Shown here: positions 1,237 through 13,319 of the stretch, in pieces
Layout: every line of letters begins with the position of its first letter
Numbering within the stretch: position 1 is the first letter of the stretch
Origin: a virus
Lineage: Duplodnaviria; Heunggongvirae; Uroviricota; Caudoviricetes
IMG/VR virus record: IMGVR_UViG_2529293239_000011
DNA: 13,319 bases
Direction: 5' to 3' (one strand)
Notes under the pieces: model-generated
The model's input: the letters and a program-made list of their open reading frames with translations, nothing else
What the model was told of the DNA's origin: nothing
Databases searched by the model: none
Translations under genes and position numbers: made by a program

Positions 1237-1310
1237 ATCATGAGTCTGAGGTAGCCTGAGTTTAACGGACACTCCTTCCTGAAATAGAATGGCATCAGAA
1301 GGAGCTAATA

Positions 1311-1613
1311 ATGAGCAGAAAAAACCAACGTTACTCTAAAGAGTTCAAAGCCGAAGCTGTCAGAACGGTTCTTGAAAATCAACTTTCGATCAGTGAAGGC
1401 GCTTCCCGATTATCCCTTCCTGAAGGCACTTTAGGACAATGGGTTACCGCCGCCAGAAAAGGGCTCGGTACTCCTGGTTCCCGCACGGTGGCTGAACTGG
1501 AATCTGAAATTCTGCAACTGCGTAAGGCGTTAAATGAAGCTCGCCTTGAGCGAGATATATTAAAAAAAGCAACAGCGTATTTTGCACAGGAGTCGCTGAA
1601 AAATACGCGTTAA
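1311..1613 (+). CDS. IS600 OrfA (transposase N-terminal, DNA-binding part), 100 aa
   Basis: Protein identical to the OrfA of the complete IS600 copy at 6173..6475; recognised as IS3-family OrfA. Confidence 0.9.
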   Translation: MSRKNQRYSKEFKAEAVRTVLENQLSISEGASRLSLPEGTLGQWVTAARKGLGTPGSRTVAELESEILQLRKALNEARLERDILKKATAYFAQESLKNTR

Positions 1614-1648
1614 TCGAACAATGGCGACAACAATTTCCCATTGAAGCG

Positions 1649-1875
1649 ATGTGTCAGGTATTTGGTGTATCCAGGAGCGGTTATTACAACTGGGTACAGC
1701 ATGAACCCTCAGACAGAAAACAAAGTGATGAGCGGCTAAAACTGGAGATTAAGGTGGCACATATCCGCACTCGCGAAACATATGGAACCCGGCGGCTCCA
1801 GACGGAGCTGGCAGAGAATGGCATCATCGTTGGTCGTGACCGACTGGCACGTCTTCGTAAGGAGCTAAGGCTACG
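1649..1875 (+). pseudogene. IS600 orfB, truncated after about 76 codons by the IS629 insertion
   Basis: Matches the N-terminus of the intact OrfB at 6511.. up to ...RKELRLR, then diverges into the IS629 terminal sequence. Confidence 0.85.
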
Positions 1876-1929
1876 TGAACCGCCCCGGGAATCCTGGAGA
1901 CTAAACTTCCTGAGAAAGAGGTAAACAGG

Positions 1930-2252
1930 ATGACTAAAAATACTCGTTTTTCCCCCGAAGTCCGTCAGAGGGCGATTCGTATGGTTCTGGAAAGTCAGGG
2001 CGAATATGACTCACAGTGGGCGGCAATTTGTTCCATTGCCCCAAAGATTGGCTGTACACCGGAGACTCTGCGTGTCTGGGTACGCCAGCATGAGCGGGAT
2101 ACCGGAGGCGGTGATGGCGGGCTCACCACCGCTGAACGTCAGCGTCTGAAAGAGCTGGAACGTGAAAATCGTGAACTGCGCCGCAGTAACGATATCCTTC
2201 GCCAGGCTTCCGCTTATTTTGCGAAGGCGGAGTTCGACCGCCTCTGGAAAAA

Positions 2253-2256
<4 letters not shown>
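1930..2256 (+). CDS. IS629 OrfA, 108 aa
   Basis: [33 protein letters not shown]..., recognised as IS629 OrfA with a helix-turn-helix and coiled-coil. Confidence 0.9.
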
Positions 2257-3494
<1,238 letters not shown>

Positions 3495-3622
3495 TGGAGC
3501 ACCTGTGTTGTTCTGAGGTGAGCATATCACCTCTGTTCAGGTGGCCAAATTCAGTGTGCCACTTCAGCCCGAAAGGGCGGGGAGCAGTCACACATCTGTT
3601 TCCGATAGCCCCGTTCTAATGC

Positions 3623-3628
3623 TACACT
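3623..3628 (+). promoter_or_regulatory. Candidate extended -10 element (TGcTACACT) upstream of the QueH-like gene
   Basis: TG at 3620..3621 followed by hexamer TACACT; no convincing -35 or Shine-Dalgarno nearby, so weak. Confidence 0.25.
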
Positions 3629-3641
3629 CTTTGATATTTTT

Positions 3642-4328
3642 ATGACCCCAATAAACATATTTATGACAGTTGCTGATTTCAAACGGCCCAAATTGGAGCT
3701 CCCAAACGGGGCAAACAAACTACTACTGCACTCTTGCTGTGCTCCATGTTCCGGTGAGGTGATGGAGGCGCTTCAGGCCTCGGGAATCGACTACACCATC
3801 TTTTTCTACAACCCGAACATTCATCCTCAGAAAGAGTATTTAATTCGTAAGGATGAGAATATTCGCTTTGCTGAACAACACGGCGTGCCGTTTATTGATG
3901 CTGATTACGACACAGACAACTGGTTTGAACGAGCCAAAGGAATGGAATGGGAGCCCGAACGAGGGATCCGTTGCACCATGTGTTTTGACATGCGTTTTGA
4001 GCGGACAGCGCTGTACGCCGCTGAAAATGGTTTCAGTGTGATCAGCAGTTCACTGGGCATTTCACGCTGGAAAAATATGCAGCAGGTTAACGACTGTGGG
4101 CGGCGAGCCGTCGCGCATTATCCGGGCATGGTGTACTGGGATTATAACTGGCGCAAGCAGGGAGGCTCGTCCCGTATGATTGAAATCAGCAAGCGCGAAA
4201 AATTCTATCAGCAGGAATATTGTGGCTGTGTGTATTCTCTGCGCGATACCAATCTACACCGCAAATCTCAGGGACGCCCTCTTATCAAAATTGGTCAACT
4301 CCACTACGGTAAAGAAGAGAAGGAGTGA
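3642..4328 (+). CDS. queH: QueH-like epoxyqueuosine reductase (DUF208 family), 228 aa (alternative start at 3663)
   Basis: Contains motifs I associate with DUF208/QueH: [12 protein letters not shown] near the N-terminus, [26 protein letters not shown] and QEYCGCVYS. Neither candidate ATG has a good Shine-Dalgarno. Confidence 0.6.
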
Positions 4329-4350
4329 TTTTATGGGGCACCTTTCTGAT

Positions 4351-4380
4351 TGATTTCATATTGGCGAGGTAAGTAGAATG
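4351..4380 (+). promoter_or_regulatory. Candidate hok mRNA promoter (-35 TTGATT at 4351..4356, -10 TAGAAT at 4375..4380)
   Basis: Sigma70-like hexamers with 18-bp spacing; predicted start near 4387 coincides with GGGUGCUUGAGG, which resembles the 5' end of plasmid R1 hok mRNA. Confidence 0.45.
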
Positions 4381-4395
4381 ACTGCGGGTGCTTGA

Positions 4396-4440
4396 GGCTA
4401 TCTGCTTCAGGCTATCTGCTTCAGGCTATCTGCTTCAGGC
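4396..4440 (+). repeat. Tandem direct repeat, 14-bp unit GGCTATCTGCTTCA in 3.2 copies, within the predicted hok mRNA 5' leader
   Basis: Perfect copies at 4396..4409, 4410..4423 and 4424..4437, plus partial GGC; a partial inverse (GGCAGATAG) follows at about 4454. Confidence 0.9.
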
Positions 4441-4526
4441 ATGAACACCAAAAGGCAGATAGAGAAAAGCCCCAGTTAACATTACGCGTCCGGCAAGACG
4501 CTTAACATTAATCTGAGGCCAATTTC

Positions 4527-4739
4527 ATGCTTTGCACATGTAGGTTAGCCTCTTACATGCCGAAAGGCAAGGAGAAGCAGGCTATGAAGCAGCAAAAGGC
4601 GATGTTAATCGCCCTGATCGTCATCTGTTTAACCGTCATAGTGACGGCACTGGTAACGAGGAAAGACCTCTGTGAGGTACGAATCCGAACCGGCCAGACG
4701 GAGGTCGCTGTCTTCGTAGACTACGAATCCAGGAAGTAA
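4527..4739 (+). CDS. mok: Mok-like overlapping reading frame (modulator of killing), 70 aa, in-frame N-terminal extension of hok
   Basis: ORF MLCTCRLASYMPKGKEKQA followed by the hok sequence; same arrangement as mokC/hokC in E. coli K-12. Confidence 0.55.
   Translation: MLCTCRLASYMPKGKEKQAMKQQKAMLIALIVICLTVIVTALVTRKDLCEVRIRTGQTEVAVFVDYESRK
4584..4739 (+). CDS. hok: Hok/Gef family type I toxin (small membrane toxin), 51 aa
   Basis: MKQQKAMLIALIVICLTVIVTALVTRKDLCEVRIRTGQTEVAVFVDYESRK closely resembles HokD/RelF and HokC/Gef; AAGGAG Shine-Dalgarno 8 nt upstream; GC hairpin right after the stop (4748..4775). Confidence 0.85.
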   Translation: MKQQKAMLIALIVICLTVIVTALVTRKDLCEVRIRTGQTEVAVFVDYESRK

Positions 4740-4988: not shown

Positions 4989-5276
4989 ATGAAAATCGAA
5001 GAATTGCGTGAAATTTTTAGTGAAAATGGCCTCTATGCTGTGCGCGTTGAGAATGGAGCGATTGTCAGCCATTGCCGCATTAGATGTTTGCAATCTCAAC
5101 AAAGGAAGAGCGGTGCTGTGTTATTTTATTTTTGTAATGGACTTCTGACGGACGGTTTTATTTTGCGTGAGGACGAATTTGTCACATCATTACGGGTTTT
5201 GAAAGAGATTGGTTTTAAGGCTGGTTTTCTGCTTTTGCTGAAGAATAAACTCATCTACAATCTTGAGCAGGATTGA
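4989..5276 (+). CDS. Hypothetical protein, 95 aa, no family recognised
   Basis: ATG start with GGAAGGA Shine-Dalgarno-like sequence upstream; closely spaced with the next gene in the same orientation. Confidence 0.45.
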   Translation: MKIEELREIFSENGLYAVRVENGAIVSHCRIRCLQSQQRKSGAVLFYFCNGLLTDGFILREDEFVTSLRVLKEIGFKAGFLLLLKNKLIYNLEQD

Positions 5277-5314: not shown

Positions 5315-5914
5315 ATGGCGCATATACAACTGATCAAACAAACCTCTTCCGGATTACTTCTCCCGGCGACGCCGGAGAGTTGCGATTTTCTGCATCAAAT
5401 CAAAACAGGTGAGTGGATACACGCAGACTTTAAGCGTGTGCGTAACTACGCATTCCACAAGCGTTTTTTCAAACTCCTGCAACTGGGATTCGATTACTGG
5501 ACTCCGATCGGTGGGGCGATTACGCCTCGCGAACGAGAACTGGTATCAGGCTTCGTTGAGTACCTGTGCGAATCAGTAGGCCGGGAACATACGCCAGCTC
5601 TGAGCGAAGCCGCAGAGCAATATCTGAATACAGTTGCGACACGCAGAACCCGAGATACAGCATTGCTAAAGTCGTTTGAGGCTTTCCGCGAGTGGGTAAC
5701 CATTCAGGCCGGATTTTACACCGAGCATATTTATCCGGACGGTAGCCGTGGGCGCAGGGCGAAATCCATCTCGTTTGCGAATATGGACGAAACCGAGTTT
5801 CAGCAGGTTTATAAATCTGTGCTGAATGTACTGTGGAACTGGATCCTGTTCCGTAAATTTTCCTCTCCGGAACAAGTCGAAAATGTGGCCGCGCAGCTAC
5901 TGGAGTTTGCGTAA
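5315..5914 (+). CDS. Lambdoid prophage nin-region-like protein (possibly DUF1367 family), 199 aa
   Basis: ATG at 5315 preceded by GGAGAAAG Shine-Dalgarno (the track ORF uses an upstream TTG); stop overlaps the next ORF start (TAATG). The family assignment is from memory and uncertain. Confidence 0.5.
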   Translation: MAHIQLIKQTSSGLLLPATPESCDFLHQIKTGEWIHADFKRVRNYAFHKRFFKLLQLGFDYWTPIGGAITPRERELVSGFVEYLCESVGREHTPALSEAAEQYLNTVATRRTRDTALLKSFEAFREWVTIQAGFYTEHIYPDGSRGRRAKSISFANMDETEFQQVYKSVLNVLWNWILFRKFSSPEQVENVAAQLLEFA

Positions 5915-6108
5915 TGGTGGATTTACGTAAAGCGGCGCGGGGGCAGATGTGCACCGTCAGAATTCCTGGCTACTGCAATCACGATCCGGAAACGTCTGTG
6001 CTGGCGCATTACCGACTGGCGGGTAAAAACAAGCGATTACACCAAAGAAGAATTACGCCTGATGCATGCAGAAGGTGTTTTTCGCACGCAAGAAATCTGG
6101 AGAAAGGA
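5914..6108 (+). pseudogene. ybcO-like (DUF1364) prophage gene remnant: N-terminal part in one frame, C-terminal part in the +1 frame, 3' end hit by IS600
   Basis: Frame 1 gives MVDLRKAARGQMCTVRIPGYCNHDPETSVLAHYRL (YbcO-like N-terminus); frame 2 from about 6020 gives ...SDYTKEELRLMHAEGVFRTQEIWRK, resembling the recalled YbcO C-terminus. The Cys-rich middle appears deleted. Confidence 0.45.
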
Positions 6109-6172
6109 TGAGGTAGCCTGAGTTTAACGGACACTCCTTCCTGAAATAGAATGGCATCAGAAGGAGCTAATA

Positions 6173-6475
6173 ATGAGCAGAAAAAACCAACGTTACTCTA
6201 AAGAGTTCAAAGCCGAAGCTGTCAGAACGGTTCTTGAAAATCAACTTTCGATCAGTGAAGGCGCTTCCCGATTATCCCTTCCTGAAGGCACTTTAGGACA
6301 ATGGGTTACCGCCGCCAGAAAAGGGCTCGGTACTCCTGGTTCCCGCACGGTGGCTGAACTGGAATCTGAAATTCTGCAACTGCGTAAGGCGTTAAATGAA
6401 GCTCGCCTTGAGCGAGATATATTAAAAAAAGCAACAGCGTATTTTGCACAGGAGTCGCTGAAAAATACGCGTTAA
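6173..6475 (+). CDS. IS600 OrfA, 100 aa
   Basis: Identical to the copy at 1311..1613. Confidence 0.9.
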   Translation: MSRKNQRYSKEFKAEAVRTVLENQLSISEGASRLSLPEGTLGQWVTAARKGLGTPGSRTVAELESEILQLRKALNEARLERDILKKATAYFAQESLKNTR

Positions 6476-6510
6476 TCGAACAATGGCGACAACAATTTCC
6501 CATTGAAGCG

Positions 6511-7329
6511 ATGTGTCAGGTATTTGGTGTATCCAGGAGCGGTTATTACAACTGGGTACAGCATGAACCCTCAGACAGAAAACAAAGTGATGAGCGGCTA
6601 AAACTGGAGATTAAGGTGGCACATATCCGCACTCGCGAAACATATGGAACCCGGCGGCTCCAGACGGAGCTGGCAGAGAATGGCATCATCGTTGGTCGTG
6701 ACCGACTGGCACGTCTTCGTAAGGAGCTAAGGCTACGCTGTAAGCAGAAACGCAAGTTCAGAGCGACTACGAACCCGAACCACAATCTGCCAGTTGCGCC
6801 AAATCTGCTGAACCAGACGTTCGCTCCTACAGCACCAAATCAGGTCTGGGTGGCGGACCTGACGTATGTTGCCACACAGGAGGGATGGTTGTACCTCGCT
6901 GGCATCAAAGATGTTTATACGTGCGAAATTGTCGGCTACGCCATGGGAGAGCGCATGACAAAAGAGCTGACAGGTAAAGCCCTGTTTATGGCGCTCAGGA
7001 GCCAGCGCCCACCTGCCGGGCTAATCCACCACTCTGATCGAGGTTCACAGTACTGCGCATACGATTACCGGGTCATACAGGAGCAGTCTGGTCTGAAAAC
7101 ATCAATGTCACGTAAAGGTCACTGTTACGACAACGCTCCGATGGAAAGCTTCTGGGGAACGCTGAAAAATGAGAGCCTGAGCCACTATCGTTTTAATAAC
7201 CGGGATGAAGCCATCTCAGTAATACGGGAATACATTGAGATTTTCTACAATCGTCAGCGTCGTCACTCTCGTCTGGGGAATATCTCCCCGGCAGCCTTCA
7301 GGGAAAAATATCATCAGATGGCTGCTTAA
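6511..7329 (+). CDS. IS600 OrfB (DDE transposase catalytic domain), 272 aa
   Basis: Contains VWVADLTYV, HHSDRGSQY and YDNAPMESF catalytic-region motifs. Confidence 0.9.
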   Translation: MCQVFGVSRSGYYNWVQHEPSDRKQSDERLKLEIKVAHIRTRETYGTRRLQTELAENGIIVGRDRLARLRKELRLRCKQKRKFRATTNPNHNLPVAPNLLNQTFAPTAPNQVWVADLTYVATQEGWLYLAGIKDVYTCEIVGYAMGERMTKELTGKALFMALRSQRPPAGLIHHSDRGSQYCAYDYRVIQEQSGLKTSMSRKGHCYDNAPMESFWGTLKNESLSHYRFNNRDEAISVIREYIEIFYNRQRRHSRLGNISPAAFREKYHQMAA

Positions 7330-8128: not shown

Positions 8129-8205
8129 GGCCCTTTAGCTCAGTTGGTCAGAGCGAGCGACTCATAATCGCCAGGTCGCTGGTTCAAGTCCAGCAAGGGC
8201 CACCA
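8129..8205 (+). tRNA. tRNA with CAU anticodon, resembling E. coli ileX-type tRNA-Ile2 (cannot exclude tRNA-Met from sequence alone)
   Basis: Cloverleaf with 7-bp acceptor stem GGCCCTT/AAGGGCC, anticodon loop CTCATAA, T-loop TTCAAGT, encoded CCA. Confidence 0.85.
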
Positions 8206-8206
8206 A

Positions 8207-8283
8207 CCACCACTAGCTCATCCGGATAGAGCATCAACCTTCTAAGTTGACGGTGCGAGGTTCGAGTCCTCGGTGGTGGGCCA
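8207..8283 (+). tRNA. tRNA-Arg (anticodon UCU, reads rare AGA codons)
   Basis: Acceptor CCACCAC/GTGGTGG, anticodon stem TCAAC/GTTGA with loop CTTCTAA, T-loop TTCGAGT, encoded CCA. Confidence 0.85.
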
Positions 8284-8285
8284 GC

Positions 8286-8361
<76 letters not shown>

Positions 8362-8364
8362 TAT

Positions 8365-8425
<61 letters not shown>

Positions 8426-8497
8426 TGAAGTGGCACACTGAATTTGGCCACCTGAACAGAGGTGATATGCTCACCTCAGAACAACACAGGTGCTCCA

Positions 8498-9663
<1,166 letters not shown>

Positions 9664-12461: not shown

Positions 12462-13319
12462 CTAATTGGGTGATAACAGATCCTGTGTATGGGCGTTTCC
12501 CTTTGTGCGTGCGTTGATGCTGGTAACGGTAAACGTCATGATGAACACGACCGCGAATAAGACGACAATCGTCGGAGCTGGTGCGCTGTCGATAAAAAAG
12601 GACAGCCAGACACCAGTCATTGACACTATTACCGATATGCCAGTCGCCAGTAGGAGCGCAATATGAAAGCGTTGTGTCAGGAGTACTGCAATGGCGCCAG
12701 GCGCAATGAGCAGAGAAATAGAGAGAATGATACCTACTGCTTTCAGCGTCGCCACAATGGTCAGGGAAACCATGCACAGCAGCCCATAATGCAGCCATCT
12801 CGTATGCAAACCGCTTACCTGCGCCTGTTGATAATCAAAGCTGAACAGCAAAAAATCCCGCCATTTTACGCTAATAACAAGTGTAACCAGCCCGGCAATA
12901 ATCACCGTCTGGATTATATCGCCGATGGTTATCCCGAGCATGTCGCCGAAAAGAATATGGTCAAGATGTACGTCTGGTTTGATTGCAATATACAAGATCA
13001 GACCTGCGGCAAACATGCCAGAAAAAACAATCCCCATAACTGTATCTTGCTTGATTCGGCTGTTGTCTTTCAGGTATCCCGTCGCCACCGCGCAGAATAC
13101 TCCGGCGACGAATGCCCCTGTAGCCAGAGGTAACCCCAGAATCCAGGTAAGCACGATGCCAGGAAAAACCGCATGACTCATCGCGTCACCCATCAGTGCC
13201 CAACCTTTCAGGACCAGAAAGACCGACAGCAGCGCACAGGGTATGGAAACTACCAGTGAAATCAGCAGTGCGTGACTCATAAAGGTGAACTGCAGTGGCT
13301 CCAGTAATAATGCCATCAT
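12462..13319 (-). CDS. sitD: Metal (Mn/Fe) ABC transporter permease, SitD-like, 285 aa; the start codon coincides with the window edge, so the N-terminus may extend beyond it
   Basis: Highly hydrophobic multi-helix protein of ABC-3 permease type; sequence resembles what I recall of Shigella/E. coli SitD. It is the last gene of the putative operon, since convergent non-operon sequence lies downstream. Confidence 0.65.
   Translation of the reverse strand: MMALLLEPLQFTFMSHALLISLVVSIPCALLSVFLVLKGWALMGDAMSHAVFPGIVLTWILGLPLATGAFVAGVFCAVATGYLKDNSRIKQDTVMGIVFSGMFAAGLILYIAIKPDVHLDHILFGDMLGITIGDIIQTVIIAGLVTLVISVKWRDFLLFSFDYQQAQVSGLHTRWLHYGLLCMVSLTIVATLKAVGIILSISLLIAPGAIAVLLTQRFHIALLLATGISVIVSMTGVWLSFFIDSAPAPTIVVLFAVVFIMTFTVTSINARTKGNAHTQDLLSPN

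Follow-up and report, generated by a model that had tools for sequence, protein, structure and literature searches.

A queH-family epoxyqueuosine reductase gene carried by lambdoid prophages of Escherichia coli and Shigella

The open reading frame at 3642–4328 of the window, as we call the whole 13,319-nucleotide stretch of viral DNA analyzed here, can be identified from its sequence as an intact, well-conserved copy of queH (family QueH; DUF208, PF02677, IPR003828). We consider it probable that the gene encodes a functional QueH and serves in lysogens as an accessory ('moron') gene, giving the host a second, B12-independent route from epoxyqueuosine (oQ) to queuosine (Q). The product would act as a cobalamin-independent iron-sulfur epoxyqueuosine reductase that converts oQ34 to Q34 in tRNA-Asp, -Asn, -His, and -Tyr. 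On this account, queH and its own promoter would go back to a single uptake from an Enterobacteriaceae chromosome, and the gene would have settled in the early-right ('nin-like') part of Rac-type lambdoid genomes, with replication genes on one side and hok/sok on the other. A second route beside the core enzyme QueG would then free Q maturation from external corrinoid supply. In the window, queH survives intact, with the IS911 fragment upstream of it probably leaving the core promoter in place.

The original prediction assigned this frame to QueH from its Cys-rich motifs, which are indeed present, as with QEYCGCVYS in the plus-strand translation of the listed ORF. Comparison with the DUF208/QueH profile gave a strong match, as Pfam PF02677 aligned with the 228-aa protein over profile positions 1–174 of 175 at 220.6 bits (E = 1.9e-65), relative to a curated cut-off of 23.5 bits. 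PF02677 was the sole Pfam family matched, and the cobalamin and ferredoxin domains of the QueG/reductive-dehalogenase type found no match in the protein. A profile search of NCBIfam returned no matching model, which is neutral toward the Pfam result.

Thermotoga maritima QueH (PDB 7lc5) was matched by sequence with E = 5e-22, and the CCAP, CxxC, and CGC motifs of the two proteins coincide in the alignment. In the numbering of the 228-aa protein, this alignment places the ligand cysteines at C32, C33, C36, C111, C114, C194, and C196. All seven metal-ligand positions are thus Cys and the ligand set is complete, so the iron-sulfur ligands, whose loss had been named earlier as a point to check, are retained. 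Presumably these seven residues hold a [4Fe-4S] cluster and a single iron, as is reported for the 2021 T. maritima structure. Cys36 aligns with T. maritima Asp13, the residue changed in the D13N mutant (PDB 9dco); the titles of the C9S and D13N entries mark both sites as probed by the depositors. At the D13-equivalent position, Cys is the norm, occupying 71 of the 75 non-gap residues in family representatives, and the other ligand positions are Cys in 61–84 of 86 members. To sample the family, representatives at 50% identity were searched exhaustively, giving 4754 matches at E ≤ 1e-3, and 86 near-full-length sequences were aligned.

An AlphaFold2 model of the protein, built on 37 homologs, is of moderate confidence (mean pLDDT 77.5, pTM 0.77). 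Its top five fold matches in the PDB were all T. maritima QueH (E ~1e-9, target-normalized TM 0.80, rmsd 3.3 Å), followed by TtuA and LarE (E of 8e-5 or weaker), that is, by tRNA thiolases and LarE of the same superfamily. The predicted fold is therefore of the QueH type, with an adenine-nucleotide-alpha-hydrolase-like core. T. maritima QueH (PDB 7lc5, 7lc7, 9deu) shares with the window protein the full-length domain, the fold, and the three Cys motifs (CCAPx/CxxC/CGC). On the other hand, the two are only ~31% identical, the window protein has Cys in place of Asp13, it extends ~18 residues farther N-terminally and ~25 farther C-terminally, and it is encoded by a prophage.

The longest reading frame in the ORF list (3642..4328, +) opens with an in-frame ATG at 3642 and gives 228 aa, but the likeliest coding sequence runs from 3663 to 4328 (+), giving 221 aa with the stop codon included in the coordinates. 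The later start is preferred because RefSeq starts queH at the ATG equivalent to window 3663, also giving 221 aa, and because the chromosomal QueH proteins of Scandinavium, Kluyvera, and Enterobacter have their first Met at the equivalent position in the alignment. Thus, the true start is probably the second ATG. The ATG at 3642 is conserved among prophage copies yet unneeded to explain them, and was set aside on the homolog alignment. A Shine-Dalgarno sequence is absent or poor before both candidate starts, and it is likewise lacking in the chromosomal homologs. Because the weak context is common to them, it is no mark of decay in the window copy, and on sequence comparison we regard it as a family trait. 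The window ORF itself is without any lesion.

Among 5426 complete E. coli genomes, 995 (~18%) carry a queH coding sequence, of which 985 have a full-length copy, and 1014 of the 1017 places are chromosomal. Every E. coli row among the matches listed bears the RefSeq name 'epoxyqueuosine reductase QueH'. When the query included the queH flanks, 2252 E. coli genomes were matched, and the flanks occurred without queH in ~1250 further genomes.

Two genomes, FDAARGOS_944 and 042, have queH within a Rac-like lambdoid prophage whose intact order is cI/cro-like genes, ydaT, ydaU/V, DUF977, queH, hokD, DUF1367, DUF1364/YbcO, DUF1133 (a Q-like antiterminator), tRNAs, and lysis genes. The isolated temperate phage HannyBb carries it at the same site (20001–20687, 96.5% aa identity), annotated there as 'hypothetical protein'. 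The proposal that queH is prophage cargo is thereby borne out, since the gene sits between the replication module and hok in the Rac-like prophages and also in this phage. IMG/VR contains 189 stretches matching queH, and the best 80 of the 189 were examined, all being full length and 99–100% identical. Within these best 80, hok follows queH by 231–245 nt in 63 of the 78 loci with enough sequence, and DUF977 precedes it in 69 of 73.

A bacterial survey with one genome per species gave a different picture, as phage neighbors of queH were seen in E. albertii only among the best 80 loci; the hok, DUF977, DUF1367, and lysis neighbors were absent at the other 79. Thus, the prophage-versus-chromosome survey that had been suggested comes out in favor of cargo in Escherichia, where queH lies in a hok-linked prophage, while copies of other species among these best 80 loci are in ordinary chromosomal contexts save for E. 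albertii.

The closest other relatives are from Scandinavium (92% aa identity), Kluyvera (91%), and Enterobacter (89–90%), whose chromosomal queH genes lie in ordinary and mutually different neighborhoods. Chromosomal QueH proteins 79–92% identical occur in Serratia, Pantoea, Erwinia, Photorhabdus, Providencia, Dickeya, Enterobacter, and Kluyvera, and QueH-named chromosomal proteins 76–86% identical occur in many Enterobacterales and other Proteobacteria. The chromosomal Enterobacteriaceae copies resemble the prophage one in encoding a near-identical protein (89–92% aa) with the same start, having the same −10-like element ~35 nt upstream, and lacking a Shine-Dalgarno sequence as well. They differ in having no phage genes nearby, whereas the Escherichia/Shigella copy is always in a lambdoid prophage by hok. 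The simplest reading of these relationships would be that one lambdoid phage lineage of Escherichia/Shigella acquired queH a single time from an Enterobacteriaceae chromosome.

Like the lambdoid 'morons' and the cargo of the nin/early-right region, queH is an accessory gene placed between conserved phage modules and missing from many related prophages. Its location inside a prophage, its position between conserved modules, and its absence from related prophages were all observed. An own promoter is probable, but no own terminator was detected, and the product is a housekeeping-type tRNA-modification enzyme, unlike the toxin, exclusion, or virulence factors that morons encode.

All 5426 complete E. 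coli genomes contain full-length queG, so every queH-positive genome carries both genes, and the prophage invariably contributes an additional reductase, never a replacement. This agrees with the proposal that queH adds a B12-independent route beside the B12-dependent QueG. An analogous pair is said to exist in Acinetobacter baylyi ADP1, where Zallot and colleagues reportedly found in 2017 that Q is lost only on deleting both queG and queH. E. coli is unable to make B12 de novo. The accompanying statement that enterobacteria normally use QueG stands for E. coli, where the gene is universal, but is too broad, as many Enterobacterales have a chromosomal QueH.

QueG (YjeS) of E. coli carries out the oQ to Q step in a cobalamin-dependent manner (PMC4646009, citing Frey 1988 and Miles 2011), and QueH has been described as its non-orthologous replacement (PMC5372724). 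The two enzymes perform the same reaction on the same tRNAs (PMC5372724, PMC4646009) but are non-homologous; QueG, with its cobalamin and two [4Fe-4S] clusters, needs B12, and queG is core (5426/5426) whereas queH is accessory (995/5426). The upstream queuosine genes tgt and queA, known from E. coli and Shigella (PMC5372724, PMC1950534), are absent from the window.

Expression of queH would start from a promoter of its own. The ~75 nt before the queH start are common to all prophage upstream variants, including the invariant TGCTACACT at 3620–3628. This putative extended −10 promoter element (TGcTACACT, 3620..3628, +, with the hexamer at 3623–3628) emerged from comparative alignment, as only the element (GCTACAAT or GCTACACT) and the ATG are conserved between prophage and chromosomal upstream regions, and nearly nothing else is. 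At the 8 closest genome loci, GCTAC[AC][AC]T sits 30–35 nt upstream of the start despite unrelated flanks, while the same pattern was found in 7 of 1580 control windows. More distant Enterobacterales have similar −10-like sequences at the same upstream place.

A generic sigma-70 promoter scan called nothing convincing upstream of queH, where the −35 is weak, and it is because of this poor −35 that the −10 element went unflagged. From the position of the element, we infer that transcription would start near 3635, leaving a leader of ~28 nt before the ATG at 3663. Because the element is common to prophage and chromosomal copies, queH probably brought its own promoter, and a native extended −10 promoter probably travelled with the gene. 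Downstream, a terminator scan from the stop at 4328 to the promoter-like site of the hok locus (4350–4379, +) revealed no terminator-like site.

With no terminator found between queH and its neighbors, and with the gene flanked by replication genes and the Q-like antiterminator in the early unit transcribed rightward, the same enzyme may instead serve the phage. It would then be transcribed with the delayed-early operon in lytic growth and convert oQ to Q for optimal NAU/NAC decoding, any effect on the lysogen being incidental. Such a role would suit a gene carried by the plaque-forming phage HannyBb, and according to a 2026 preprint, Q goes up and oQ goes down through queG induction when Shewanella is infected by phage, making the oQ to Q step responsive in infection. 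However, the −10 element inherited from chromosomal homologs argues for expression independent of phage promoters, and the window queH has stayed intact although the prophage around it no longer has repressor, replication, lysis, or structural genes. We consider a primarily lytic purpose unlikely, although lytic and lysogenic roles of queH are mutually compatible.

The preferred reading, an accessory gene expressed in lysogens from its own promoter, has to accommodate the IS911 fragment upstream of queH in the window. This inverted fragment, comprising the left end and orfA (3186..3566, −), was found by self-BLAST, in which 3186–3567 is 98.7% identical to 8803–8425 of a full IS911 copy in the opposite orientation. 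Its end at 3566 lies 75 nt before the ATG at 3642 and 96 nt before that at 3663; to the extended −10 element farther up, the distance is 54 nt as far as the TG (3620) and 57 nt as far as the hexamer (3623). Intact prophages have DUF977 and a hypothetical gene where the window has this fragment, and the junction recurs in 3 of the best 80 of 189 IMG/VR loci. As the IS911 end is upstream of the conserved −10 element, the core promoter is probably intact, even though the phage genes farther upstream are gone, and with them any transcription reaching queH from phage promoters. The original prediction had called expression uncertain on account of the weak start context and the IS911 cut. Both features are there, but the weak start is a family trait and the −10 element is retained.

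Incidentally, a GC-rich hairpin with a GAAA loop (CCGCCC-GAAA-GGGCGG) precedes the window-type queH allele at 3567–3590 (about 9000–9025 in locus L001). It is missing from queH alleles of the 042/HannyBb type, and the IS911 end falls in the left arm of the window hairpin.

Prophage copies of queH are in general under strong purifying selection. Comparison of the window copy with other prophage copies gave 13–23 synonymous and 1–5 non-synonymous differences (dN/dS of 0.017–0.051), a range equal to that between chromosomal orthologs. Copies of the window's Shigella-like lineage in IMG/VR are mutually 100% identical, and dN/dS is therefore silent on selection within that lineage.

The prophage of the window is, from its gene content, an IS-riddled, Shigella-like remnant next to sitD. 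A Shigella or enteroinvasive E. coli background is suggested by its IS content and by the closest match in the E. coli collection, a strain whose 261-kb plasmid bears ISSfl3 and ISSbo1. It begins at its left end with an integrase (1–1272, −), followed by an IS600 fragment with an inserted IS3-family element, the IS911 fragment, queH, hok/sok, DUF1367, a truncated YbcO with a second IS600, a DUF1133 antiterminator-like gene, tRNAs, the full IS911, IS110 and IS66 elements, and sitD. Relative to an intact prophage, all that normally separates int from queH has been lost, as has all that normally lies beyond the tRNAs.

Several details of the remnant deserve recording. The insertion sequences at 1247–3566 are nested, with an IS600 copy (1247–1875, 100% identical to 6109–6737) broken by the IS3-family element, which has a frameshift ALIL pseudoknot at 2211–2327. 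Next comes the inverted IS911 fragment, and the entire early-left, immunity, and replication region of the prophage has given way to these elements. The putative nuclease gene YbcO/DUF1364 at 5914–6111 covers only profile positions 2–38 of 92 and is truncated by the second IS600 at ~6109. The right end of the window (12462–13319, −) encodes a SitD-like permease of the ABC-3 family (manganese/iron transporter), and the remnant abuts this sit locus, from which it is parted solely by IS911, IS110, and IS66 elements.

Beside queH lies a separate hok/mok/sok type I toxin-antitoxin locus (4350..4739, +), which appears intact. The hok neighbor named in the original prediction is accounted for by mok/hok ORFs at 4527–4739 (+; Pfam HOK_GEF PF01848, E = 4e-23) and a sok-family RNA match at 4386–4589 (+; Rfam RF01794, 108.5 bits), preceded by the promoter-like site from the promoter scan mentioned above. 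Just downstream of queH, the hok/sok leader contains 3.7 copies of a 14-nt tandem repeat, TGCTTCAGGCTATC, at 4389–4440. The spacing from queH to hok is 231, 240–242, or 245 nt across related loci, and the 231- and 245-nt values differ by one repeat unit, which, judged from spacing alone, suggests copy-number variation. Farther on, between hok and DUF1367, a 95-aa ORF (4989–5276, +) has a G+C content of 0.40 (~0.50 in its neighbors) and no Pfam match; it is 99–100% identical in window-type prophage copies (L084–L099) and missing from several other IMG/VR loci.

The phage-type tRNA genes said to lie about 3.8 kb away were also located. The cluster (8129..8428, +; ARAGORN, Rfam) holds Met/Ile-CAT, Arg-TCT, and Thr-TGT genes and a truncated fourth; the three complete genes found by ARAGORN at 8129–8361 are 3.8 kb downstream of queH, and an inserted IS600 accounts for 1.26 kb of that distance. 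A functional link between queH and the cluster was dropped, as none of the tRNAs has a GUN anticodon. Because tRNAs with CAT, TCT, and TGT anticodons are not queuosine substrates, the proximity reflects lambdoid genome layout only. Intact prophages have Ile, Arg, Thr, and Gly tRNAs at this site. The gene at 8129–8205 is Met (CAT) according to ARAGORN and its equivalent in the intact prophage is tRNA-Ile according to RefSeq, so that the product is probably a tRNA of the lysidine-modified Ile2 type, like those encoded by the tRNA clusters of other lambdoid phages. The fourth tRNA (8374–8428, a partial Rfam match to model positions 10–63) is cut by the IS911 copy that begins at 8426.

Such a degraded setting raises the question of whether queH in the window is a silent passenger, switched off by IS911 and by the loss of upstream phage promoters. 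Besides the damage itself (IS600, an IS3-family element, IS911 twice, IS110 and IS66 fragments, and truncated YbcO and tRNA genes), the IS911 end is just 96 nt upstream of the start and the Shine-Dalgarno sequence is weak. The gene would then be kept by the youth of the remnant, as copies of the lineage, being 100% identical, would have had no time to decay, or by the adjacent, seemingly intact hok/mok/sok, which would disfavor deletion. However, the ORF is undamaged, the putative −10 element is kept along with ~54 nt before it, and the chromosomal homologs, which are presumably expressed, have the same weak Shine-Dalgarno context. Silencing thus seems quite improbable to us. As for why queH is retained in this remnant, usefulness, youth of the remnant, or linkage to hok/sok could each be responsible, and in the last case the gene could be hitch-hiking.

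A new function of the prophage QueH, on another substrate such as modified 7-deazaguanine in DNA or in phage–host conflict, is hardly credible: phages do use 7-deazaguanine chemistry on DNA (PMC6884629) and QueC-like proteins have been recruited to defense systems (PMC13639016), but the protein is 89–92% identical to chromosomal QueH, purifying selection on it is very strong, none of its ligand residues has changed, and neither DpdA/TGT-like nor other queuosine/7-deazaguanine genes were found in the prophages of FDAARGOS_944 and 042 or in phage HannyBb. An anti-phage-defense role was dropped too, as a PADLOC search gave no defense-system match for the protein.

The identity of the protein is known, since RefSeq already gives it the name QueH (WP_012421537.1 and related entries), and the gene identification made here is ordinary and well founded, with a modestly interesting, testable angle. 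Phage-centered resources miss it, as PHROGs labels the matching family phrog_3217 (E = 1.7e-138) 'unknown function', the HannyBb gene is called hypothetical, and homologs of QueA, QueG, or QueH were reported as absent from the viruses analyzed when viral 7-deazaguanine genes were surveyed in 2019 (PMC6884629). Residue 34, past the CCAPC motif, is where the phrog_3217 profile begins, a hint that an internal Met of QueH is taken as the start in many phage gene calls. Our literature search on QueH and epoxyqueuosine reductase in phages and prophages revealed no paper that treats queH as phage cargo, as the apparent hits either dealt with queG or arose from reference lists. What is under-appreciated is how commonly temperate phages of E. 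coli and Shigella carry a tRNA-modification enzyme, reaching ~18% of complete E. coli genomes, and that this enzyme invariably has the same task as a core gene dependent on a vitamin for which E. coli lacks a de novo pathway.

With more doubt than confidence, we suggest that prophage queH could be a lysogenic-conversion factor acting on host translation, freeing Q maturation from B12 in about one-fifth of E. coli strains and in Shigella. Any selective advantage from avoiding B12 is conjectural, as it would require that tRNAs with oQ and tRNAs with Q differ in function. If the suggestion is true, decoding of NAU/NAC codons would be altered in B12-poor niches such as the host-cell cytosol and the urinary tract. 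Q-dependent virulence in Shigella might also be affected, where translation of VirF depends on tgt/Q (PMC1950534, PMC5041530). In that event, no phage-carried enzyme of the tRNA-specific queuosine branch would have been documented before QueH, and if the B12-independent route shifts the Q/oQ balance in B12-poor niches, it would offer a simple and testable example of how a prophage can tune the translation of its host.
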